A DNA stretch of 54,511 bases, from NCBI GenBank assembly GCA_028719205.1, contig JAQUKH010000016.1, positions 1-54,511 of the forward strand, read 5' to 3'. Positions 24,074-35,700 of this stretch are shown in pieces. Source of the stretch: a bacterium (lineage in GTDB: Bacteria > JACRDZ01 > JAQUKH01). The translations under genes and the position numbers were made by a program. Position 1 is the stretch's first letter. Each line of letters starts with the position of its first letter. Under the pieces are notes generated by a model. It had not been told where the DNA came from. It saw only the letters and a program-made list of their open reading frames with translations, and did not search any database.

Positions 24074-24799
24074 CTAAAAACAATATTTAAAACCCTCTTT
24101 ACGAAGCCGTTCACGGCGAATTTCATAATCAGGAATAATTGTACCAAGAATTTTCCAAAAATCTTTTGAATGGTTTACATGTTTCAAGTGGCAAAGTTCA
24201 TGAACTACAATATAATCAATTAACGATATTGGAGCCATAATTATATGCCAATTAAAACGGATACAACCTTTATGATTGCAGCTTCCCCATCGCTTGCTTT
24301 GATTAGCAAGAATTATTTCCGGTACAATCAGTTTTAATTTTTTTGCATATATTTTTACTCTTTTAGCCAAAATTATTTTTGCATGTTTTTTGTACCAATG
24401 TATAAGCTTATTTCTAACCTCGGCTATCGTATTTAAATCACTATTGAGATTAACTAAAAATCTTCCACCTTTCACGGTAATATCTGACTTATTTTTAGAC
24501 TTCAATATTCTCAGCCGTATTTGCCTCCCCAAATATAAAAAAGTTTCACCGGTAATAAATTCTCTTTTTGGCAAATTCTCCATAACTTCATTTATTCGGC
24601 GTTGTTTATCCAAAATCCACGCGGCTTTGGAATGTATCAATTTTGAAAGGAACTTAATAGTTGGTTTTAGGGGTGTCCTCAAAAATACTCCTTCAACCGG
24701 ATCAACAAAAATACTTATGGTTTTTCTTTTTTTACTGCGTTTAACAAAGAAGTTGATTTTTCTTTTGCCAAATAAAACTGTTCCCTTTTCTACTATCAT
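24074..24799 (-). CDS. YgjP/DUF45 (M48/SprT-like) metal-dependent hydrolase
   Basis: GETFLYLGR, RWGSC, IDYIVVHELCH..NHSKDFW; usual position after hsdR. Confidence 0.88.
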   Translation of the reverse strand: MIVEKGTVLFGKRKINFFVKRSKKRKTISIFVDPVEGVFLRTPLKPTIKFLSKLIHSKAAWILDKQRRINEVMENLPKREFITGETFLYLGRQIRLRILKSKNKSDITVKGGRFLVNLNSDLNTIAEVRNKLIHWYKKHAKIILAKRVKIYAKKLKLIVPEIILANQSKRWGSCNHKGCIRFNWHIIMAPISLIDYIVVHELCHLKHVNHSKDFWKILGTIIPDYEIRRERLRKEGFKYCF

Positions 24800-27700
24800 T
24801 TTGCAAGCCTCACTCTTGCCAATTCCATAATCTTAGCTGTCAAAATTTCAATTTCTTCAAATTGATAACCTTTTTCCCTTAAAATTCCTTTTATCTGTTT
24901 TCGCATTTCACGCTGTACATCATCTTTATGAATCCAATCTATAACTGCTAATTTTTTCAGCGATTCAAATATAAAATGCGTCAATTCCTTATTATTATCC
25001 TTTTTATAATTATATTCTGAAGCATCTTCTTGAAAATTGTCTTCATTTGAGTCTTCGTCAGATTTTGTTGCAGGAATATTGCTCACAATAGCCCTGTTAT
25101 TTTCTTTAAGAATTTTATATAAAGCATATTCCGCTTCAGAAAAACCGAGAGAGCCTGCAATTTTTCCAACATTCTGAATTTCACTTACCAAGAACTGTAA
25201 ATGTTTTAATTCTTCAATTGCGTTTAACCGTTCCTGTTTTCTTTCATCAATAATCTGCTCAAGGCGTTCTTTAATTGACTGATAAAAAACCGGATTTTCT
25301 TCTGAATGTATATGTATTTCATAACGAATGGCATGTTCTATCTCGCTTGCCTTTGCTTCAGGTGTTGTCAATGCTTCAACTACCTCGTCAAATTTTTTAG
25401 AGAAAATTGACACCGGTTCCAATAGCTTCTGAATTCCATTTGTTTTTATATGATCTTCAATAAGCTCGCGCACTTTTGCACCGCAGCTTGATAAATCTAA
25501 AGTTGAATCTCTAAAACGGTTCTTCGCGGCATTTCTTACTTTGCCGAGCCATTTTAAATCCGCGCTATATCGTAAAGCTGACGGATCAGGCAAAACCATG
25601 TCCATACTTTGTGAAAAACGCCTGAAGGCAACATCAAAATCGTATCTTATGTCTTCCGGCTCTAATATTTTTATACACGCCTCGAGGTCGGATTTATCCA
25701 CCCTGTCAAAGAACCGCATAGCCGATCGATGCCTCGCTTCAAGACGAGGAAGCTCATCAGTCTTAAGATTAAGCGCACCAATTATATCCGCGGGCTGAAA
25801 CACCGCGAGCGCTTCCTGTAATTCCCTGGATATTCCCCAATAATCAACCACAAGGCCATAATCTTTTTTGTCCGCTGTCCTGTTAACACGGGCAATAGCC
25901 TGTAAAAGCGTATGGTCTTTTAACGGCCTATCGATATACATAACTTGTTCAACAGGCGCATCAAATCCGGTTAAAAGCTTATCGCAAACAACAATAATGG
26001 CTAATTTTTCTGCCGAATCTTCTTTAAAACTTCTAATAATTTCTTTTTCCTCTGCCTGTGTCTTATGGTGTTTTTTAAGACGCATCGGATCGTTATTACT
26101 ACCTGATATTAAAATCGCTGATGGCGGCGCGTTTAATTTATCAAGTATTTCTTTATAAATAATTGCCGCCTCCCGGCTCGAAGTAACAATCTGGGCTTTA
26201 AACCCGTTTGGCATAATGAATTTCTCATAATGTTCAATGATATCAAGACATATTGTTTCTATTCTTGTAGAAGCAAGCCCGATAATTTCTTCTGTTATAT
26301 ATTTTTTCTTAATTTCCTCACGTTCATTTTCGCTATAATCTTGAAAATACCTGTCAAAAATAACATCCAGATTCTCGCCCTGCACATGAACATCTGGAAG
26401 CCTGCCTTCATAAAATATTGGAACAGTTGCTTCATCCTGAACAGCCTGTTCAATGGTATAAGTGTGGATATATGGGCCAAACGTCTGGATAGTACTGCGG
26501 TCGTTTTTATCTATTGGTGTTCCGGTAAATCCTAAAAAACACGCGTTCGGCAATACTTGCCTCATATTAGCCGCCAAATTTTTATATTGTGTCCTGTGCG
26601 CCTCATCAACCAGAACAAAAACATTTTCATCCTGAAGGGGTAAATCCCCGTGCCCGCCCTGATCTTCAGTTAATTCCTTGAATTTCTGGATTGTGGTCAT
26701 TATAGCCTGGCCATTGCCTGCCCGAATTAATTCTCTAAGGTGTCTTACACCCTCCGCCTGAACAGGATTAGGAAAACCGCAACGTTGAAAAGTTCCGACG
26801 ATCTGGTTGTCAAGATCAATCCTATCGGTAACTATAATTAACATTGGATTTTCGAGTTCTTTACAGCGTTTTAATTTTACAGCAAGCCATAACATCGACA
26901 GCGACTTGCCTGAACCCTGTGTATGCCAGATAACACCTCCGCGTTCTTTTTTATTTTCAGCCTTAATAATCCGTTCCATAGCATTATTTACCGCTATGAA
27001 TTGTTGATATCTGGATATCTTTTTTTGAGTCCGCCCGTTTTCAACTTCAAAAACGATAAAATTACGGATAATATCTAAAATATTTTTCTTTTCAAATAAT
27101 CCATAAATAAGAATATCCTGTGAAAGAGGAGGTTTACCAAAAATACGGGAGGTATATTCTTTATTTAACACATCTAGGCTGATCGGATAAGGCTCCTTCC
27201 ATTCTGAAAAATGCCTGTAAGGCGCGCATATTGTAGCAAATTTTGCTTTCTGTCCGCAGGCCGCGATAAGAATCTGAACAGTTTCAAATAATCCAGGCAC
27301 GCCCCTGTTTTTGAATTCGTCTTTTAATTCTTGATATCTGGAGAGCTGTTCAATTGCTTTATTTATAGGTTCGTGAATTGTGGGGCTTTTACATTCAATA
27401 ACCGCCAAAGGTATCCCATTAATAAAAACCACTACATCGCAAATAATATTTTCTTTCGGCCCTGAAACTTTAAACTGCCGAGTTACAATAAATTCATTTT
27501 CCTCAGGATGTTCAAAATCTATAAAATAAACATTATGACTTTTTTTACCTTTCCCATCAATGTCCTGTTCAAGCGATAATCCATGCACCAGAGAAATATA
27601 AATCTTCTCGTTTGCTTCGATCAAACTGGACGCGGAAACATTAGTTATAGCCCTGACCGCCTTTTTAAGATTTTCATCAGAAAGCCAAGGATTAAGCTCT

Positions 27701-27858
27701 TCGAGCTTTTTTTCTAAGCGATGAACCAAAACAGTATCTCTCAAACTCTCCCGTTCCGCATCCAATTTCTCTGACACCACAAACGTATATCCGAGCTTTT
27801 CCAAAAATTCAACCGCCGGATTTTCAGATAAATTTATTTCATTCCAGTCTTGTGTCAT
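24796..27858 (-). CDS. hsdR: Type I restriction endonuclease subunit R
   Basis: Nuclease D..IECK, Walker A HTQGSGKS, DEAHR, GFTGTP, LLTGFDAP, QAIARVNR. Confidence 0.95.
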   Translation of the reverse strand: MTQDWNEINLSENPAVEFLEKLGYTFVVSEKLDAERESLRDTVLVHRLEKKLEELNPWLSDENLKKAVRAITNVSASSLIEANEKIYISLVHGLSLEQDIDGKGKKSHNVYFIDFEHPEENEFIVTRQFKVSGPKENIICDVVVFINGIPLAVIECKSPTIHEPINKAIEQLSRYQELKDEFKNRGVPGLFETVQILIAACGQKAKFATICAPYRHFSEWKEPYPISLDVLNKEYTSRIFGKPPLSQDILIYGLFEKKNILDIIRNFIVFEVENGRTQKKISRYQQFIAVNNAMERIIKAENKKERGGVIWHTQGSGKSLSMLWLAVKLKRCKELENPMLIIVTDRIDLDNQIVGTFQRCGFPNPVQAEGVRHLRELIRAGNGQAIMTTIQKFKELTEDQGGHGDLPLQDENVFVLVDEAHRTQYKNLAANMRQVLPNACFLGFTGTPIDKNDRSTIQTFGPYIHTYTIEQAVQDEATVPIFYEGRLPDVHVQGENLDVIFDRYFQDYSENEREEIKKKYITEEIIGLASTRIETICLDIIEHYEKFIMPNGFKAQIVTSSREAAIIYKEILDKLNAPPSAILISGSNNDPMRLKKHHKTQAEEKEIIRSFKEDSAEKLAIIVVCDKLLTGFDAPVEQVMYIDRPLKDHTLLQAIARVNRTADKKDYGLVVDYWGISRELQEALAVFQPADIIGALNLKTDELPRLEARHRSAMRFFDRVDKSDLEACIKILEPEDIRYDFDVAFRRFSQSMDMVLPDPSALRYSADLKWLGKVRNAAKNRFRDSTLDLSSCGAKVRELIEDHIKTNGIQKLLEPVSIFSKKFDEVVEALTTPEAKASEIEHAIRYEIHIHSEENPVFYQSIKERLEQIIDERKQERLNAIEELKHLQFLVSEIQNVGKIAGSLGFSEAEYALYKILKENNRAIVSNIPATKSDEDSNEDNFQEDASEYNYKKDNNKELTHFIFESLKKLAVIDWIHKDDVQREMRKQIKGILREKGYQFEEIEILTAKIMELARVRLAK

Positions 27859-27932: not shown

Positions 27933-28790
27933 TTACTTAATTCTTTTGCAAAAATCATATTTTAATTCAGGCCATTTATTTTTTATAAAGAGCCAACCTA
28001 ATTTTGTTACATGTGTTGCCCAAAAATATGATCCATCTTTTTCAGTAAAATGAGTCCAAGTCATTCTTTTTTCCAACAATTCTTTTAGTGCTAGTTGGAA
28101 CAAATTCGCAGAGGCTTCCCCATATTCCTTCTTAAAAAATTCTGGCATTCTATATGGATAAAACAGGCCTGGAGCGCCTCCAGCTCCTTCTTCTGTTTGA
28201 TACCATGACGCATACTCATATAAAGTTCTTATGGCATCTGTAGTTAGACTTTCAGACAATTGTGTAACGTAAGCACTACGTTCTCGTTCAAAATTTTCAC
28301 CAGCTGACAAAAATGCTTTTACAATCCCATCAACATTTCCATTGGGACAATTATATTCAATAACATTATTAGTTTTAATATCAAAATGTAGTTGGTCTAA
28401 CGGATCTTGAGTCACAAGAATTATTTGATCGTTTGACTTGAAAGCCATTGCTATCCCAGTTTCTAACATCACTCCTGCATTTCCACCTGTTAAATCAGCA
28501 AAGAAAAAATGAGAGGCTAGAATTTTTTTGACTATTTCATCAGTAATTACATTTGCTGTTCCAGAAAAATGTAAAGCAGTTTCTGGTTTTAAAAATTCTT
28601 TAAGCCGTGCCCCTTTCTCTATATTTGCCTGGTCAACAGCCTTAAAAATTACCTCGTTAAATATTTTTTCTACAGAATAATTAAATCTTTCCCTAAATGG
28701 CATAGCTACAAAGGTCGTATAACTATCTGAAGAAAACATTTCGGCTAATGAACTATCGCGGAAATTTTTATAAATAATTTCAGGATTCAT
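27933..28790 (-). CDS. Nucleoside 2-deoxyribosyltransferase/TIR-like fold protein with probable C-terminal winged helix
   Basis: FVAMPF, ITDEIVKKI..HFFFADLTGGNAGVMLETGIAMA, FDIK..IEY; C-terminal LKELLEKR..VTKLG. Confidence 0.62.
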   Translation of the reverse strand: MNPEIIYKNFRDSSLAEMFSSDSYTTFVAMPFRERFNYSVEKIFNEVIFKAVDQANIEKGARLKEFLKPETALHFSGTANVITDEIVKKILASHFFFADLTGGNAGVMLETGIAMAFKSNDQIILVTQDPLDQLHFDIKTNNVIEYNCPNGNVDGIVKAFLSAGENFERERSAYVTQLSESLTTDAIRTLYEYASWYQTEEGAGGAPGLFYPYRMPEFFKKEYGEASANLFQLALKELLEKRMTWTHFTEKDGSYFWATHVTKLGWLFIKNKWPELKYDFCKRIK

Positions 28791-28831
28791 TATTTTCTTC
28801 TTTTCCTTTCATATTTGCACCCTCTTGCATA

Positions 28832-29059
28832 TTATCCTTTTGGCGGATGAGGATCGTTCCCATGGCTATCCGATTGTGAAATTTTTCCATCGCTATTATG
28901 AATTACAAATTCTGTTTTCTGATTTTGGCTAACTTCCCTGCCTTGTTTTACTGCTTCTGCTTTGGTATCGAAATGTCCCGAGGCTCTATCTGCCCCTCCT
29001 TTTTTAACATCCCAACCACCATTTGGATTATGAACTACATGATGACTTTTTCTTGACAT
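28832..29059 (-). CDS. DUF2188 family protein
   Basis: HHVV..GGWDVK..TKAEA..IHNSDGKI..DSHGNDPHPPKG; SD AGGAGGTG. Confidence 0.88.
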   Translation of the reverse strand: MSRKSHHVVHNPNGGWDVKKGGADRASGHFDTKAEAVKQGREVSQNQKTEFVIHNSDGKISQSDSHGNDPHPPKG

Positions 29060-29133
29060 TTGATTTCACCTCCTTGTTCCTAAGTATTTTTTATAGAATT
29101 AAATCCACTATTATTTTGCATTATATTTTTTAA

Positions 29134-29805
29134 TTATGATTTTGCTAATTCCGCTATCGCTTTTATATGTTCCCATGATATTGCCATAAAAATATTTGCA
29201 TCCCCTGCATCCTTAGAAGGACTATCAGACAATACACCAATAACTTTCGTGGGATCATTTTTTAAAACTATTGGTGAACCACTAAACCCTCCGGTTACCG
29301 CTCCTGTAATTTGAATCTTTTTTACAAACCCTGTTTGGCGAAGCTGTGCACCAACAACACCTTCAGAAAAAGTAGGCATATGTGCTGAATCAAGCAGTTG
29401 TAATCCCAAAGGGAATCCAGCATATTGAACTGATTCCCCTACTTCTGGATATCGTCCAGCTAATTCTAAACCATTTAAATATTCTTTTTCTAACATTTCT
29501 TTCGGAGTATCAGAAGACAAACGTAATATAGCTAAATCATGAGAAAAATCTAAAGATTCTACATGTGCCCGCTTGTAATTACCCTTATTACCAACAACTA
29601 GCAAACCAGCTATTTCTAAAGGTGCGCCAACAAGATCCTTAACTACATGAGCACAAGTAATTAATATATTGTATCCTTTCAACCAAAACGCCGTACCAAT
29701 AACATTTAAGGAATCGGCAAACACCTTACCTGAATTAGGTTGGAACTTTGGACGAAATATACCAAGCGCTCTTACCCCACTATACACAATAGGTTCATTA
29801 CTCAT
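29134..29805 (-). CDS. Cytoplasmic trypsin-like (S1) serine protease
   Basis: GTAF, TCAHV, DLAIL, GFSGSP catalytic triad; no signal peptide; SD AGGAGG. Confidence 0.85.
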   Translation of the reverse strand: MSNEPIVYSGVRALGIFRPKFQPNSGKVFADSLNVIGTAFWLKGYNILITCAHVVKDLVGAPLEIAGLLVVGNKGNYKRAHVESLDFSHDLAILRLSSDTPKEMLEKEYLNGLELAGRYPEVGESVQYAGFPLGLQLLDSAHMPTFSEGVVGAQLRQTGFVKKIQITGAVTGGFSGSPIVLKNDPTKVIGVLSDSPSKDAGDANIFMAISWEHIKAIAELAKS

Positions 29806-29816
29806 AAATATACCTC

Positions 29817-31055
29817 CTATTTTTTCGTCCTTACCTTTCCCGTCAAAAGCACCTGCATAAGGGCGTATTTAAGGTTGTTTAAATTTTTTATTTCTTTCAA
29901 CATTTTGTTAATATAATTATCTAAACCTTCTAAAGATTTTATTATTTTTACTTGTTCTTCAATTGTAGGTATAGGCATTTTTGAAATAGTGAAAAAATCA
30001 GATTGTACTCTTTGCTGTCCAGCCGTACCAGTAAAATAGTTTTTTGCAATATTTCTAAATGATTTTTGAGCAATATAATAAAATAAAAATTCTGGAATTA
30101 AAACATTATTTTTTACCCTTAAAACGTGAAATTCTGTTGAGCCAAATCCAATACCATTTTTCAATCCACAAGCAACCACAGATTTGCCATTTTCCATACA
30201 AGGTGTAATCTTTGCGAATAGAACATCTCCATTTTTAAAATATGTATAACCTGTTTCAACATCTAAAATATTTCTTTCATATTGACAAATAATACCCTTC
30301 CCTTCCTCTTGCACTGATTTCATAGGTATAAAAGAAACTTTTATATCTTTGTTAAAATGAGAAATTTCTTTTTTTGAAGGATTAACTACACAAACTTCAG
30401 ATATTTTTTTAAGCTCCCATCCATTCGGGGTCACCCCAATTTCCGTTTTTTTAAATTTCCTATACCTTCCTGGAATGCCGCGCGTAAACAGCTCCTGCAC
30501 CAACCCGTTTTTAAAAATTTGGGTTTGCTCAATTATGGCTTGAGTTTTATCGATAACTGCGTCGATAGAAGATAAAATACCATAGATTTTATGTTGTTCA
30601 GATACTGGAGGAAGCAAAAAAGGAAATCCTGCGAGTGAAGAATAATTTAGAGAATCTCGGACTGTTCCCTGCGTACCGGCTTTAACAAGATTTCTAAAAC
30701 AAGGACTGGATATCCAATAATCTAAATATTTTGCATCGAGCCCTTCTTTTGCTTCAAAAACCACATACATTGGGCTTAAAAGCCCTTTATCGTATTCCTT
30801 AAGACAAGCAATTGAGCCAACATTGACCCTTGAAGGATTATAGGCAAATTGGCCTTTCCGAATAACTTTATAATTACTCAGGTCTTTACTGAATACTTTT
30901 TTACTAAAATAATCTTCTGATATAACAAATCCTGTTTTATTCGTAACACTTAAAACCGGTGTGTTATTATTATTTTTATTTCTCTCACTAACCTCTGTTA
31001 ATAACTTCCCAAGTTTAATTGGATTCCATCCATCCGGCACTTTTTTATTTTTCAT
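29817..31055 (-). CDS. hsdS: Type I R-M specificity subunit with two target-recognition domains
   Basis: VPDGW..TRD1..PPVSEQHKI..GLVQELFTRG..PNGW..TRD2..PTIEEQVKI..LMQVLLTGKVR. Confidence 0.93.
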   Translation of the reverse strand: MKNKKVPDGWNPIKLGKLLTEVSERNKNNNNTPVLSVTNKTGFVISEDYFSKKVFSKDLSNYKVIRKGQFAYNPSRVNVGSIACLKEYDKGLLSPMYVVFEAKEGLDAKYLDYWISSPCFRNLVKAGTQGTVRDSLNYSSLAGFPFLLPPVSEQHKIYGILSSIDAVIDKTQAIIEQTQIFKNGLVQELFTRGIPGRYRKFKKTEIGVTPNGWELKKISEVCVVNPSKKEISHFNKDIKVSFIPMKSVQEEGKGIICQYERNILDVETGYTYFKNGDVLFAKITPCMENGKSVVACGLKNGIGFGSTEFHVLRVKNNVLIPEFLFYYIAQKSFRNIAKNYFTGTAGQQRVQSDFFTISKMPIPTIEEQVKIIKSLEGLDNYINKMLKEIKNLNNLKYALMQVLLTGKVRTKK

Positions 31056-31236
31056 TCACGAGTCCTTTATCAGAGGGCATAGCACGCTGTACCCCTGCAT
31101 TCGCATCAATCTTTTCTTCTGTTTTTACAAATTTTCCGCATCCGGCACAATGATAAATTAGTAATATCTTTTTTATCGCCTGCATTTTTCTCATGTGCGA
31201 TTCAGTGTATTTTTTACAATACGGGCACCAATCCAT
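31045..31236 (-). CDS. Small Zn-ribbon protein
   Basis: CPYC..CAGC in 63 aa, packed between dinD and hsdS. Confidence 0.55.
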   Translation of the reverse strand: MDWCPYCKKYTESHMRKMQAIKKILLIYHCAGCGKFVKTEEKIDANAGVQRAMPSDKGLVNEK

Positions 31237-31239
31237 TTT

Positions 31240-32073
31240 TTATTTCCTTACATTTTTTATTAATTTTTTATCTTCTGATTTTATCTGCCGTTCCAGTTTT
31301 TTAATATCGTCTTCGGGTGGTAATTCTTCTGGTTTTATGCCACTTTTCCCTAGTAATTCCCGCACATCTCTATTATTTTTTACATGTTCAGAAGTTATTA
31401 TATGCTCCCCTCGCAAATCGTTCTTTTTAGTATTAAATCCTGTTATTTCCGCGGCCAAATCTTTCGCCTTTATGGTTATGGTTGGTAAAAAATCTGCAAG
31501 AGGCCTTTTCCCTGGCAATTCAAGTTTCCGTTTCATTTCCATAGTTGTATAACCACCAAATAATGCTTGGTCTCCCTTGCTTCGCAAACGGGCAAATCCC
31601 TCCCCATCAATTCCGCGTTCATAAACTACCCCGGAAAGTTGAGCCTCTGTATCTGCAAGTTTTTCACGCGCGCTAATTCGTTCTACTAAAGCAATTCGTT
31701 TTTCTATCAATTCCTGTTTACGAGTCTGTATCGCAAAATAACTTTGCGCAAAAGCAATTTGTTCCTTGCGAGGGTCACCATTCTGAGCGATTAGATAACA
31801 GGCATAACGAGTAAGCATAATATCGTCGACTTCCCTTTTGGCACCCTTACCTAAATCTATCATTTTGTTGACGTCAACAAAATGATCCGCAATATTTTGC
31901 CCAGAATTTGAACAAGCAATTTTTGCTTTGTCTATAACAAGCAAGAAATTGCGCCACTCCATATAATCAAGTAATTTTTGCAAATCACGTGCCATCCAGT
32001 ATTCAATTCCATCCTGGATAAAAACTGAATCTTCAAATGTTTTATTAAGTTTTACAATCAATTCTTTTTGCAT
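31240..32073 (-). CDS. dinD: DNA-damage-inducible protein D family (BRO-N-like N-terminus)
   Basis: [85 protein letters not shown]. Confidence 0.9.
31859..31886. repeat. 28-bp perfect palindrome inside dinD
   Basis: ATCATTTTGTTGAC|GTCAACAAAATGAT. Confidence 0.95.
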
Positions 32074-32102
32074 AGATCCTCCTGTTCATCTTCATTATAC
32101 AA

Positions 32103-32144
32103 AATAACTATCATATTGTTGACGTCAACAAAATGATAGTTATT
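32103..32144. promoter_or_regulatory. 42-bp near-perfect palindrome (putative operator) over the dinD promoter
   Basis: AATAACTATCATATTGTTGAC|GTCAACAAAATGATAGTTATT, one mismatch; minus-strand TCAACA-17-TATAAT promoter overlaps it. Confidence 0.75.
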
Positions 32145-33657
32145 CATAACCCAATTCTTTCAAACACTCATTCATTTTTTTCTCTGCCTTATCCCGCTCT
32201 TTCTCAAGCTCCCTTAGCTTTTTAAGCGCATCTTTTACATCAATTTTTTCTTCAGGTTCAGATATATCAACATAACGGCTGATATTAAGGTTATGGTCAT
32301 TTTCCCTGATTTCATCAAGGGAAACGACACGGGAAAATTTATCAACATCTTTATATTCGTTGAAGACTTTCACTATTTTTTCTATATCTTCATCACGCAG
32401 CCTGTTTTGTTTTTTGCCTGCTTCGTAATATTCTGAGGCATTGATAAATAAAACTTTATTTTTACGCTCTTTTGGTTTATTGCGGTTTAATATTAAAATT
32501 GCCGCTGGAATACCTGTACCATAAAAAAGATTTGGCACCAGCCCAATAATTGCCTCAAAAAAATCTTCTTCTAACAAAGCCTTTCTTATCCGACCTTCCG
32601 ACGCGCCCCTGAAAAGCACACCATGAGGCATTACAACTCCAACCATACCGTTATTATTTACTGTCGCAATCATGTGCTGAACAAACGCGTAATCACCTTT
32701 TGTTTTAGGTGGGATACCATAGCGGAACCTGCCAAAACCATCATTCTCGGCTGCTTCAGTACCCCATCCATCAAGACTAAAAGGCGGATTGGCTATAACT
32801 CTGTCAAAAAGCACTAATTCCCCGTCTTTTACAAATTTCGGATCACGGATTACGTCACCTTTTTGAATATCCGCATCAGGGAAATTATGCAAAAGCATAT
32901 TCATTTTGCATATGGACCACGTTCCAAGATTTTTTTCCTGGCCACATAAAGAAATATTTTTCGCGTTTCCTTTTTTTCTTTCAACATAATGCGCGCATTC
33001 AATCAACATACCACCAGAGCCGCAGGTTGGATCACATATACGCATACCCTCTTTTGGCTTTAGTATTTCAACAATAAGTTGAACAACTTTACGTGGAGAA
33101 AAAAACTCCCCACCTTTTTTGCCTGCATCATCTGCGAATTTTTCAATCAGGTATTCATAAGCCTGTCCAAGGATATCAGGATCTTCAAGATTTGAATTTT
33201 TTAGATCAATTTTAGAAAAATGGTTAATAAGACGGGATAAAACAGAATCACGATTTTTAGAATCTCCAAGTTTATTTGAGTTGAAATCTATATCCGCTAA
33301 AACTCCTTCCAATGTAGGATTTTGATCTTCCAATACTCCGCAGGCTTTATTAATCCCTTCCCCAATATTTTGAGAAATTTTTCTTATTTCAGTCCATCGG
33401 CTGCGTTTAGGAACAAAAAATTGATGTTCATCAGGGTCATCCTGTGCTATTTTTTGAGCTTCAGATTTTGACACACCCCTTTTCAATTCTCTTTTTTCAA
33501 TCTTTTCCGCCTCTTCATCAAAAACATCCGACAACCGTTTTAGAAAAAGAAAACCAAAAATATAATTTTTGTAATCCGATGAATCAATTGAACCGCGCAA
33601 AATATCTGCGGCCCCCCATAAATAATTATTCAACTCAGAGCTAGTCAGTTTCGCCAC
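32140..33657 (-). CDS. hsdM: Type I R-M N6-adenine methyltransferase subunit M
   Basis: LWGAADILRG, GEFFSPR, DPTCGSGG, NPPF, PHGVLFRG, NLFYGTGIP. Confidence 0.95.
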   Translation of the reverse strand: MAKLTSSELNNYLWGAADILRGSIDSSDYKNYIFGFLFLKRLSDVFDEEAEKIEKRELKRGVSKSEAQKIAQDDPDEHQFFVPKRSRWTEIRKISQNIGEGINKACGVLEDQNPTLEGVLADIDFNSNKLGDSKNRDSVLSRLINHFSKIDLKNSNLEDPDILGQAYEYLIEKFADDAGKKGGEFFSPRKVVQLIVEILKPKEGMRICDPTCGSGGMLIECAHYVERKKGNAKNISLCGQEKNLGTWSICKMNMLLHNFPDADIQKGDVIRDPKFVKDGELVLFDRVIANPPFSLDGWGTEAAENDGFGRFRYGIPPKTKGDYAFVQHMIATVNNNGMVGVVMPHGVLFRGASEGRIRKALLEEDFFEAIIGLVPNLFYGTGIPAAILILNRNKPKERKNKVLFINASEYYEAGKKQNRLRDEDIEKIVKVFNEYKDVDKFSRVVSLDEIRENDHNLNISRYVDISEPEEKIDVKDALKKLRELEKERDKAEKKMNECLKELGYE

Positions 33658-34252
33658 GGTAATCCTCCTTATTCATTAACATATCTGTTACTATTTGATT
33701 TGTAATTTCTTTTCTTAAATTTGCTGATTCAATACTTAAACGATATTGTACCTCTGAAATATTAGCAAGATTAGCTATTCTTTTCTGTAAATCGACAGCT
33801 GGGACCGGAACATTAATCTCACTAATATTAGATACATTTAATACAAGCTGCATTGTTGAAGATGCTATATTGGATAAAAGAACTCTTTGGCCTTCTTTGG
33901 TTTTTAAATATGCTGCTAAAAATATTGGAAGTAATTCACAGGTAAGACGAATAGCTATAAGATTTGATGTTATTATTGCTTTTGGTAAATTATCAGGAAC
34001 AACCGCTATTTTTAGTTGAGTACCACGGCAGGTTATTATTATATCGTCAGGATAAACAATATAATGTTCAGCATTTTTGAAATTATTTAATGAAAATTTT
34101 TTAAGATTGTCAATCTTGATTCCATCATCAGTTATATCTTTAATATTTATAACCGGTATTCCTTTCTCACCTTCTATTAGCTTTACAATACTATATAATG
34201 GAGCACCACAAAATATTTTTTCTGCAACTGATTTTAAACTTTTAGATACCAT
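33641..34252 (-). CDS. Half-size HsdS-like protein, one target-recognition domain plus coiled coil
   Basis: DDIIITCRGT, FLAAYL, ISEINVPVPAVDLQKRI pattern; 17-nt overlap with hsdM. Confidence 0.75.
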   Translation of the reverse strand: MVSKSLKSVAEKIFCGAPLYSIVKLIEGEKGIPVINIKDITDDGIKIDNLKKFSLNNFKNAEHYIVYPDDIIITCRGTQLKIAVVPDNLPKAIITSNLIAIRLTCELLPIFLAAYLKTKEGQRVLLSNIASSTMQLVLNVSNISEINVPVPAVDLQKRIANLANISEVQYRLSIESANLRKEITNQIVTDMLMNKEDYRGETD

Positions 34253-34281
34253 TTATTCTCCAAAAAATGTTATTGTCTAAA

Positions 34282-34310
34282 AGTTTATCGTATAAATTCT
34301 ATTTTGTCAA
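34282..34310 (-). promoter_or_regulatory. Sigma-70 promoter of the R-M operon
   Basis: TTGACA-17 nt-TAAACT. Confidence 0.65.
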
Positions 34311-34498
34311 GAAAATATTATTATATTAATATTTATATTTAATATTACAAATATTAATTTATTTTATCATATAAGTAACCGTGTTTAATAGCGAATATTA
34401 TAATTACTGGCAAAAAATCAACATAATTGCCGATAATTTGATTAATCACAATTCCGTTTTTGCTGAACAAAATTATATCTTTTGGGTATTTTATTCTA

Positions 34499-35011
34499 TT
34501 ATATTTTCTTAATTTTTTTCAGATACATCCCAATCTCATGCTCGAAGTTATCGCTGAAAATAGATTTAGAGAGGTTTTCTTTGATTTCTTTTATGCTCCA
34601 TGCCCTGACTTCATCTATTTCCTGTTTATTAAAAGATATTTTACCGCGATAAACGCAGGAATAAGTATATACAAGCTCCGTTTCATAGGAATTTGAATGG
34701 ATATATGAGTATAGAAATTCAGGACGGCAGTTTTTGATGCCAAGTTCTTTTTCAGTTTCGCGTCTCAACGCTTCGGCCAGGCTTTCTCCATGAGTTACAT
34801 GGCCGCCGACCGATGTATCCCACTTGCCCGGCGCTACATCTTTGTTCATGGAACGTTTTTGCAAAAATAGATCGCCTTCTCCATTAAATACAAGACAATG
34901 CACGACCTTGTGAATTAAGACAGGGTTTCCATGTATTTCATCCCTGGGAAGCAATCTTACAGTTTCTCCCTTTTCGTTAACGATTTCCAGAATTTCTTTA
35001 TTTTCCCGCAT
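34499..35011 (-). CDS. NUDIX hydrolase (IPP-isomerase/YfcD-like)
   Basis: HKVVH, LQKRS..KD..PGKWD, Nudix box GGHV..GES...ALRRETEKELGI. Confidence 0.88.
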   Translation of the reverse strand: MRENKEILEIVNEKGETVRLLPRDEIHGNPVLIHKVVHCLVFNGEGDLFLQKRSMNKDVAPGKWDTSVGGHVTHGESLAEALRRETEKELGIKNCRPEFLYSYIHSNSYETELVYTYSCVYRGKISFNKQEIDEVRAWSIKEIKENLSKSIFSDNFEHEIGMYLKKIKKI

Positions 35012-35230: not shown

Positions 35231-35509
35231 TTAATAACATACATCATGGTCTCCGACTTCAATAAAATACACCCCTTCGTCTTCTAAAATTTTAAAAACC
35301 ATTCTGTCTGAATAATTGATCCAAAATGCGTAGTAATCTTTTAATTCACCTTTTAATTTGTGTGTTTTCAACCTTTTATCAAAAATATCTTCGACAAATA
35401 TTTCAAGTCTTTTTTTAAGTTTTTGCCTATCATTATCCGTCAATTTACTTTTATATTTTTCAAACTTTTTACCAAACGCTAAATCATACTTAATATATTT
35501 TGGTTTCAT
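35231..35509 (-). CDS. RelE/YafQ-family mRNA interferase toxin
   Basis: 92 aa, basic; LKTHKLKGEL, INYSDRMVF, VGDHDVCY. Confidence 0.85.
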   Translation of the reverse strand: MKPKYIKYDLAFGKKFEKYKSKLTDNDRQKLKKRLEIFVEDIFDKRLKTHKLKGELKDYYAFWINYSDRMVFKILEDEGVYFIEVGDHDVCY

Positions 35510-35514
35510 AAATA

Positions 35515-35700
35515 TTATAAGCTTTCAATAAATTCGTTTACCGACATCTTCTTTGTCTTTCCCGCTTTTAAATTTTGTTCCGCCTCATGTATCCTGAATA
35601 AAAATTGCTGGCGTTTTACAGTCTTATACAATTCTTTTAAAAAAATGTATTCTGACCTGGGAACTTTCACCACATCGTTTAATGCTTCAACCTTACTCAT
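35515..35700 (-). CDS. Putative cognate antitoxin
   Basis: 61 aa directly upstream of the toxin; EAEQNLKAGK..EFIESL; SD AGGAG. Confidence 0.7.
   Translation of the reverse strand: MSKVEALNDVVKVPRSEYIFLKELYKTVKRQQFLFRIHEAEQNLKAGKTKKMSVNEFIESL

Follow-up and report, generated by a model that had tools for sequence, protein, structure and literature searches.

A self-complementary element in the Bro-N wing codons of dinD: conservation across homologues and possible reading by the dinD product

The dinD locus and its two palindromes

The DNA considered here is a stretch of 54,511 nucleotides (the window), contig JAQUKH010000016.1 of the bacterial assembly GCA_028719205.1. It carries a dinD gene (31240-32073, minus strand; 277 residues) embedded in a type I restriction-modification operon, and the coding sequence of this gene contains a perfect palindrome, ATCATTTTGTTGACGTCAACAAAATGAT (31859-31886). 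The palindrome is 28 bp long and consists of two 14-nt arms that are 100% complementary and have no spacer. It extends from position 2 of codon 63 to position 2 of codon 72, and can also be read as 11-nt arms flanking a GACGTC centre.

DinD matches the NCBIfam equivalog model NF008573 over residues 1-275 of 277 with 361.1 bits (cut-off 242), and the PADLOC candidate model PDC-S13 over residues 1-274 (E 1.1e-115). The embedding that goes with this candidate is also present: dinD sits between the type I methylase gene hsdM (32140-33657, minus strand) and the downstream gene hsdS (29817-31055, minus strand), which has two target-recognition domains. Pfam Bro-N (PF02498) matches residues 19-108 with 42.6 bits against a gathering score of 25.6; a first-pass annotation of the window had pointed out the resemblance of the N-terminus to BRO-N DNA-binding domains. 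No recognised nuclease domain was found in DinD by the Pfam scan. It should be mentioned that positions 11-268 of a further PADLOC model, PDLC03083 ("type I specificity subunit", 717 positions), also match DinD, which implies that DinD-HsdS fusion proteins exist.

A second palindrome lies in the spacer between hsdM and dinD (32103-32144). It is 42 bp long, with 22-nt arms that are 95% complementary and contain one mismatch. It holds a 30-nt direct copy of the coding palindrome at 32108-32137, identical at 29 of 30 positions and at a start-to-start distance of 251 bp; its 28-bp core is 32110-32137, and one of its arms is in the ATATTG form. This upstream palindrome overlaps the stop codon of hsdM (32140-32142) and the -35-like hexamer of a promoter-like site, TCAACA-17-TATAAT (32122 to 32094, minus strand), the hexamer being in the gene-proximal arm. 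The site is promoter-like by its match to the sigma-70-like consensus only (10/12), and is the top match of this kind within 31200-32400. A ribosome-binding site, AGGAGG (32078-32083, minus strand), is located 4 nt ahead of the dinD ATG. The first-pass annotation had described the perfect coding palindrome, its 29/30 copy inside the 42-bp palindrome, and the promoter-like site and hsdM stop codon beneath the latter; all of these were found as described, with 14 of 14 positions of the coding arms paired. A conserved internal promoter formed by the TTGACG core was considered and rejected: the window has weak -10 matches only, and none is conserved in the consensus flanks.

The presence of two copies in the window is not due to chance. 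For the 16-nt core with up to two mismatches, 0.01 matches are expected in the window, and two matches were obtained in none of 100 shuffles. In the whole genome (2.59 Mb; 92.7% completeness), the core is represented by these two copies and one two-mismatch match elsewhere. A dispersed repeat or miniature inverted-repeat transposable element is ruled out, because the genome has two copies only. Palindromes with arms of at least 11 nt number 13 across the whole window, both copies included, which corresponds to a background density of about 0.24 per kb. In an RNA spanning both copies, the two are predicted to pair with each other around the start region, with a minimum free energy of -116.1 kcal/mol and a z-score of -5.98. 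The Rfam 15 covariance models gave nothing near the gathering score in 31000-32600 and no match in six related loci. When contigs of four metagenome runs were compared with 29500-34500, short contigs of other dinD alleles stacked on the conserved parts; among these short contigs, neither a joint between the two palindromes nor a dinD-less form was seen.

The coding palindrome in dinD homologues and in other Bro-N-type genes

Homologous loci were collected in two sets. The first comprised 80 loci whose DinD proteins are 64-81% identical to that of the window, from Omnitrophota, Bacteroidota, Nitrospirota, Chlamydiota, Bacillota, several archaeal groups and others, and gave 81 sequences together with the window. 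The second comprised 80 further loci centred on a Bacillota clade. Among the 157 loci of both sets that had enough upstream DNA, the arms are paired at 13-14 of 14 positions in 108, at 11-12 in 40 and at 10 or fewer in 9; in other words, at least 11 of 14 arm positions are complementary in 148 of 157 dinD loci, drawn from many bacterial phyla and archaea. In a 48-column alignment of the 81 sequences, 86.8% of the pair cells are complementary, compared with 21.8-51.2% when the partner was slid by 1-3 columns. The covariation score was matched by none of 500 shuffles.

The pairing is kept through changes of amino acids. The third base of the Asp63 codon complements the first base of codon 72 in 80 of 81 sequences: GAC occurs with Val GTC in 42 and GAT with Ile ATC or ATA in 38, with one exception. 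On a tree from which codons 60-75 were excluded, about 18 switches between these two states are counted. At residues 66 and 69, there are at least six complementary codon pairs, each altering two amino acids: Val/Asn GTT/AAC, Ala/Ser GCT/AGC, Pro/Arg CCT/AGG, Arg/Thr CGT/ACG, Ser/Gly TCC/GGA, and Ala/Gly GCC/GGC. The centre of the palindrome occurs as GAC-GTC, GGC-GCC, AAC-GTT, and GAG-CTC, and in two loci (L161 and L172) the palindrome is perfect though all twelve central bases differ from those of the window.

Codon choice in this region is also restricted. The observed/expected codon entropy, computed in ten-codon bins from sequences that have the majority residue, drops to 0.44 in codons 61-70; codons 51-60 give 0.71, and all other bins 0.83-1.01. 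The His codon CAT and the Lys codon AAA are each used in 81 of 81 sequences, and GTT for Val66 in 71 of 72. The commonest arm mismatches, TTC/AAA and CAT/ACG, are A-C on the sense strand. It is firmly established that the arms are held complementary by selection or by a strong bias, that the palindrome belongs to the gene rather than to the host, and that its place is a single structural position in a nucleic-acid-binding fold. Complementarity, more than sequence, is its most strictly conserved property. The first-pass annotation had proposed looking among homologues for codons that stay palindromic while the peptide varies, and had supposed that the site and the protein segment would change together. 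A constraint at the nucleic-acid level is indeed present in the homologues, and the amino-acid-changing codon pairs bear out the supposition.

In homologues at 38-39% identity, the palindrome is kept only in part. In Escherichia coli dinD, taken from a plasmid-collection record, 10 of 14 positions are paired; the outer arms ACCATTT...AAATGGT remain and the centre has decayed. A DNA-similarity search of E. coli genomes gave no match. The genome of the window contains two more dinD paralogues (G000:C15:53652-54461 and G000:C2:106892-107692). One paralogue (58% identity) has kept the palindrome, with 14-nt arms and a single mismatch; the other (39% identity) contains an in-frame TAA, and its palindrome is largely decayed.

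Palindromes are also found in other Bro-N-type families. A Bro-N protein that is 21% identical to DinD (L104) is encoded by a gene with a 31-bp palindrome at codons 61-71 (L104:2262-2292). In the four homologues covering this region (L216, L217, L218 and L221) the palindrome is kept and the arms differ, so that it is present in 5 of 5 sequences including L104; in viral contigs only one homologue of this second Bro-N family was found, and the phylum of the window is represented by 6 genomes in the searchable set. In RhuM (PF13310), a common passenger of type I operons, 14 of 15 full-length loci have a 23-29-bp palindrome that coincides with the beginning of the Pfam match. Among 31 RhuM genes (L222-L251 and L117), 11 of 11 pairs are formed in 11, 10 in 14, 9 in 3, 8 in 1 and 7 in 2, that is, at least 8 of 11 pairs in 29. 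At least nine quite different stems occur in this family, with matching peptide changes, and the mismatches are G-U in 8 cases, A-C in 4 and other in 11. The palindromes of DinD, RhuM and the second Bro-N family thus occupy a shared position, approximately 200 nt into the gene. As a side observation, RhuM matches in 151 genomes include many fragments that cover only model positions 1-70 to 1-140; the commonest RhuM remnants are N-terminal pieces, which hold the palindrome.

In the AlphaFold2 model of DinD (predicted local distance difference test score, pLDDT, 88), residues 65-75 and 78-87 form a beta hairpin of the Bro-N domain; a helix of 49 residues (104-152) and then a C-terminal domain, also helical, come next. 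The coding palindrome encodes the first strand of this predicted beta-hairpin wing; its placement within the putative DNA-binding domain, suggested in the first-pass annotation, is borne out by the model. The top six Foldseek matches in the Protein Data Bank are all DdrC (probability 1.00; E 1.1e-6 to 2.2e-4; template modelling score 0.29-0.48), at a sequence identity of 13-15%. Homodimer prediction gave a score of 0.53 (median of 0.55, 0.02 and 0.53), compared with 0.00 for the best of three controls; among proteins solved as one-chain pairs, 20 of 30 attained this mark, and among those solved as single chains, 1 of 23. Contact agreement among the runs was at least 0%, and the pLDDT of the partner was at least 78. 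Resemblance to DdrC dimers of solved structure may have contributed to this result. The predicted interface is formed by residues 49-59 and 89-123, which would leave the wings free. DinD is accordingly predicted to be a symmetric dimer of a DdrC-like fold. According to PMC11347143, DdrC is a dimer that binds nicks and double-strand ends and bridges two such sites, and it binds supercoiled, not relaxed, plasmid.

Copies outside the coding sequence and the gene neighbourhood

With a relaxed pattern, a further site was found in 15 of the 81 loci of the first set, compared with 1.4 per shuffled round; 11 of these are convincing (three mismatches or fewer). The outside copies are placed just before the start codon or approximately 70-130 nt past the stop codon. 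Upstream of dinD, a copy occurs at 4 of 80 loci in the first set and at 9 of 157 across both sets. The upstream copy is not a general companion of the coding palindrome. Other palindromes in the 150 nt upstream of the 80 loci are diverse and unrelated, and none of them amounts to a second shared motif.

The outside copies often surpass the coding copy as palindromes, and their arms are extended by sequence that has no relation to dinD; their lengths reach 42 bp in the window, 38 bp in L086 and L098, and 42 bp in L116. In place of the Phe and Lys codons required in the coding copy, many of them read ATATTG/CAATAT. When 596 Gb were scanned for the ATATTG-type pattern ATATTGNTGACGTCANCAATAT, for which about 0.5 chance loci were calculated, 29 loci in many phyla were obtained, and the two N positions are complementary in 28 of them. 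Five of the 29 lie 24-69 nt ahead of a dinD start and one lies 260 nt ahead; one is before a second kind of Bro-N gene, and one is in a dinD fragment before a RhuM gene. An orphan palindrome of this type (L102:1970-2058) has the same 25-nt sequence on both sides, the sole case among the 29, and looks like an insertion with a long target duplication.

The core of the upstream copy ends 14-36 nt ahead of the start codon in ten loci, and in L133-L135 and L143 it ends just 6-10 nt before the ribosome-binding site. Most upstream copies thus leave no room for a promoter downstream of them. In most loci, the upstream site is in the 5' untranslated region or directly before the gene; the placement over the -35 seen in the window is not typical, and is one variant. 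The distances between upstream and internal copies are 229, 235, 235, 236, 238, 238, 244 and 251 bp, with one at 331 bp. They lack a constant helical phase, so that phased looping over about 24 helical turns, as proposed from the spacing in the window, is not a conserved feature. A further expectation, that each outside copy would co-vary with its own coding copy, did not hold generally: the triplets match in only about 8 of 14 loci.

The presence of an upstream copy seems to be linked to decay of the internal copy. An upstream copy accompanies 1 of 108 internal palindromes with 13-14 pairs, 4 of 40 with 11-12 pairs, and 4 of 9 with 10 or fewer. In the L133-L135 clade the internal palindrome has been lost (5-7 of 14 positions), and an ATATTG palindrome is present 235 nt upstream of the lost site. 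Counted as about seven lineages, this trend is suggestive but not proof.

Several loci have more elaborate arrangements. L111 carries at least five tandem units of about 155 nt, roughly 620 nt upstream of dinD and in part masked with N; in each unit, a stretch of about 55 nt resembles dinD coding sequence and includes the palindrome. In L063, three palindrome copies are contained in 2.4 units of 214 nt downstream of dinD, and L105 has an outside copy on each side of dinD. Half-sites can be hybrids, as in the upstream copy of the window and in L093. In L059 and L041 (the "KT" clade), the outside copies are symmetrised to the variant arm CGT/ACG, not back to the consensus. Coding remnants resembling dinD flank the outside copies in L048, L053, L071, L094, and L119. 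A type III toxin-antitoxin system was considered and rejected, since the window has a single upstream copy and the units of L111 and L063 (the latter downstream) are too long; the repeat units of known type III antitoxins are far shorter than 155-214 nt.

The remaining genes of the operon are all on the minus strand. A half-size hsdS (33641-34252; 203 residues, one target-recognition domain) precedes and overlaps hsdM. The spacer between dinD and hsdS is filled by an open reading frame of 63 residues with two CxxC pairs (31045-31236), which overlaps the start of hsdS and has no Pfam match. Between hsdS and hsdR lies a second embedded cassette of three genes (27933-29805), encoding a trypsin-like protease with weak PADLOC matches to RT-Protease_XI, PDC-M35A and LmuA, a DUF2188 protein that matches PADLOC PDC-S16 (E 8.5e-37), and a 285-residue product whose only match, nucleoside 2-deoxyribosyltransferase-like, is below threshold. 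Beyond this cassette, at the far end of the operon, lies hsdR (24796-27858), with which a YgjP-like peptidase is listed. Beside the island, a 92-residue YafQ-like toxin frame (25.4 bits, cut-off 30) preceded by a 61-residue frame (35231-35700, minus strand) is a possible toxin-antitoxin pair. Among the 24 open reading frames scanned in 14,036-42,515, there is no integrase, recombinase or transposase.

Other dinD genes have different neighbours. On a Chondrinema litorale plasmid (L131; NZ_CP111067.1, 3852-4697), dinD lies between cysD and cysN with gaps of 25-26 nt, and 19 plasmid records of this species match DinD. In two Akkermansia loci (L117 and L118), DinD is fused to a C-terminal winged-helix (ArsR/MarR-like) domain to give a protein of 365 residues; a 36-38-bp ATATTG-type palindrome is ahead of the fused gene, and in L117 a RhuM gene is immediately upstream.

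Possible role of the element and comparison with known systems

Among the readings weighed here, we tentatively favour a portable cis element: the palindrome would be read by the dimeric, DdrC-like product of the gene in which it lies. The element would self-pair as a hairpin or cruciform, and would be part of the dinD cassette in the first-strand codons of the Bro-N wing. It would most likely serve as a site for the symmetric dimer either on its own DNA, as an operator or a transcriptional roadblock, or on its own transcript, and binding of DinD would limit dinD expression. Since the site is within the reading frame, this control would be kept at any place of insertion; a promoter-less single-gene cassette could in this way keep its self-control wherever it is inserted, for example between hsdM and hsdS. 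The second copy in the window, at the -35 of the dinD promoter and the hsdM stop codon, might enable the same protein to act on the local promoter and on read-through from hsdM.

The element travels with the gene across phyla and archaea, which makes the co-travelling product the simplest candidate for its reader. The hybrid half-sites would suit two monomers on a duplex, and the arrays beside dinD in L111 and L063 fit titration sites. The outside copies keep the sequence although no coding constraint acts on them, and they lie at gene starts; both points support a site read by the product, as do the constraint on pairing, the local drop in synonymous freedom, the predicted dimer, and the covarying palindromes at the corresponding position of RhuM and the second Bro-N family. 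The redundancy of upstream and internal copies fits a replaceable site. We infer that the product is the reader, that the element is read as duplex, cruciform or RNA, and that the outcome is regulatory. The proposal in the first-pass annotation that DinD may bind a site written in its own frame is partly supported, as regards the coding constraint, the position in the wing, the copies near start codons in several lineages and the predicted dimer; the general upstream copy and the phased looping that went with it are not supported.

Several observations weigh against this reading. What the structural relative DdrC recognises is nicks and ends, not a sequence (PMC11347143). Complementarity is kept even where the sequence is free, which favours a structure or a mutational process. 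In RhuM, the stems diverge between close relatives, which makes a sequence-specific operator unlikely in that family, and none of 28 RhuM loci has an outside copy. Of the 29 palindromes found with ATATTGNTGACGTCANCAATAT, 18 are orphans with no dinD in the surrounding 2 kb on either side, most of them in non-coding DNA with a defence or mobile context; a full-length dinD was found elsewhere in 2 of 5 genomes with such orphans, these being metagenome-assembled genomes that may be incomplete. The triplet of the outside copy is unlike that of the adjacent gene in L074, L199, L143, L071 and L171. The redundancy trend comes from about seven independent lineages, two of them strongly decayed, and the window itself, with both copies well kept, is an exception to it. 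A structure-sensing, DdrC-like protein acting on the hairpin or cruciform would reconcile most of this evidence.

A more general form of the same reading is possible, though rather doubtful. Throughout the Bro-N superfamily (DinD, RhuM and others), a gene-internal hairpin in the wing codons would be read by the product, the arms and the wing residues would be forced to change together, and a promoter-less defence cassette would be self-contained, able at any insertion site to sense and limit itself or to sense the condition of its own DNA; extra or replacement sites would then be provided by the outside copies and arrays. If this were true, the DNA state sensed by the cassette would be supercoiling, breaks, or single-strandedness.

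Other explanations require no reader of this kind. Correction of quasi-palindromes by template switching is an established process, and a neutral, self-perpetuating palindrome might arise if intrastrand switching copied one arm to the other: a change in a single arm would be reverted or mirrored, the palindrome and its "compensatory" codon pairs would be maintained with no function, and the outside copies would be relics of dinD genes that have decayed or been displaced. Consistent with this are the pairing kept at free positions in the coding copy, in the outside copies (28 of 29) and in RhuM, the symmetrisation of L059 and L041 toward the variant arm, the dinD-like remnants beside five outside copies, and mismatch types that lack an RNA-like bias. 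Pure mutational drive, however, predicts none of the following: the shared structural position of different palindromes in three families, the often longer and better outside copies with their unrelated extensions, the symmetric ATATTG form common to them across phyla, their clustering 14-36 nt from start codons, and their association with internal decay. We regard this explanation as rather unlikely. An RNA hairpin independent of the product, serving host machinery as a signal for processing, stability or translation and, for instance, uncoupling the message of the cassette from that of hsdM, seems less likely again. It would account for complementarity as the conserved property, for an element that is always 5' in the transcript unit (about +200 nt in three families, or 14-36 nt before the start) and for the predicted pairing of the two copies in the window. 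It does not agree with mismatches that show no G-U enrichment in RhuM and are A-C on the sense strand in dinD, with compensation at the two central pairs (GGCGCC, AACGTT, GAGCTC), which could not pair in a hairpin loop, with retention of the element in both bacteria and archaea, whose RNases differ, or with the absence of an Rfam match. Furthermore, the upstream copy in the window precedes the predicted -10, so that transcripts from the TCAACA-17-TATAAT promoter would lack it.

The folded palindrome might also be a site of recombination or mobility, used in the manner of attC to insert, excise, or exchange dinD cassettes, with the outside copies as cassette boundaries or empty sites. The behaviour of dinD as a single-gene insert, between hsdM and hsdS here and between cysD and cysN on the Chondrinema plasmid, is in accord with this, as are the outside copies before the start or past the stop (on both sides in L105), the orphan copies in defence or mobile contexts, the one orphan with a 25-nt flanking repeat, and the small arrays. 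The conserved copy is in the middle of the gene, however, where recombination would split dinD, and the scanned frames around it include no integrase, recombinase or transposase. A maximum-chi-square scan covered 2849 pairs drawn from 76 sequences (L056, L070, L078, L084 and L088, which are truncated or hold N, were dropped from the 81), and breakpoints were not concentrated at the palindrome; a value of 12 was exceeded by 6 pairs, at codons 62-171, and a value of 20 by none. Flanking direct repeats were found at 1 of 29 orphans only, and the metagenome contigs held no joint between the two copies. This explanation is thus considered improbable. An operator for a host regulator such as LexA, to which the coding copy would be incidental, is very unlikely. 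The E. coli dinD gene is a chromosomal, SOS-controlled gene, and in the window the upstream copy overlaps a promoter-like site; on the other hand, the absence of the core from the rest of the 2.59-Mb genome, except for one two-mismatch match, means that there is no regulon, the same core occurs in phyla and archaea with differing host regulators, and only 4 of 80 upstream regions of the first set contain the site.

DinD and RhuM are among the commonest unexplained genes in restriction-modification and defence operons, and are listed as defence candidates. An element that spans two domains of life and shows amino-acid-changing compensation gives the first concrete handle on the working or control of such cassettes. 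A nucleic-acid constraint here clearly dictates protein sequence, through at least six residue pairs at positions 66 and 69, and the element is relevant to evolutionary models of these families and to the annotation of "orphan" palindromes in defence islands. If mutational drive were the true cause, the element would be a striking natural example of a self-healing palindrome that steers protein evolution. In practical terms, it yields an oligonucleotide for binding, synonymous mutations for reporters, and natural lost, duplicated and arrayed variants to compare.

A literature search gave no description of a palindrome in the coding sequences of dinD, RhuM or bro genes. The main text of the preprint of Payne et al. 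(2024) does not mention DinD. The portion of Milman et al. (2023) dealing with these genes lists RhuM and dinD only as neighbours of invertible hsdS genes. E. coli DinD (PcsA) belongs to the same NF008573/PDC-S13 family as DinD of the window; the former gene has a decayed palindrome centre, whereas the latter has a perfect palindrome with a second copy and is embedded in a type I operon. Over both domains, the DinD model is matched best by the structure of DdrC of Deinococcus radiodurans (7qvb, 7udi, and 8u0g). DdrC is dimeric and has two sites for DNA binding (PMC11347143), whereas DinD is a homodimer by prediction only; DdrC is without known sequence specificity or binding to its own gene. 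Perfect inverted repeats with both arms coding are also known from mitochondria of Nematomorpha, where (PMC6649704) they are up to 284 bp long, numerous, confined to hairworm mitochondria, and not tied to a single protein fold. The dinD-type element, in contrast, is a single element of 24-30 bp at one structural position of one domain superfamily. None of the nearest known systems, namely these mitochondrial palindromes, integron attC sites and operators within coding regions, combines a fixed fold position, amino-acid-changing compensation and cross-phylum spread.

Integron attC sites resemble the dinD element in that they are self-pairing, conserve structure over sequence, and belong to single-gene cassettes and small arrays. 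An attC site is imperfectly palindromic, is located beyond the reading frame on the 3' side of its cassette, and depends on the integron integrase, whereas the conserved dinD copy is inside the frame (codons 63-72), is perfect, and has no integrase nearby. The homing endonuclease I-TevI is likewise the product of a mobile gene that limits itself by autorepression, but its operator is in the promoter and not in the reading frame. The closest likeness in position is to purB/PurR, lacO2 and galOI, operators within coding sequences that act as roadblocks or looping partners. Like these, the dinD element is a dyad-symmetric site early in the coding sequence, with a copy just before it in the window that adds a partner at a promoter-like site. 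Those operators serve a separate host regulator in the operon of one species and have no amino-acid-changing compensation, whereas the dinD element moves with its gene across phyla and is written in the codons of a putative DNA-reading element.

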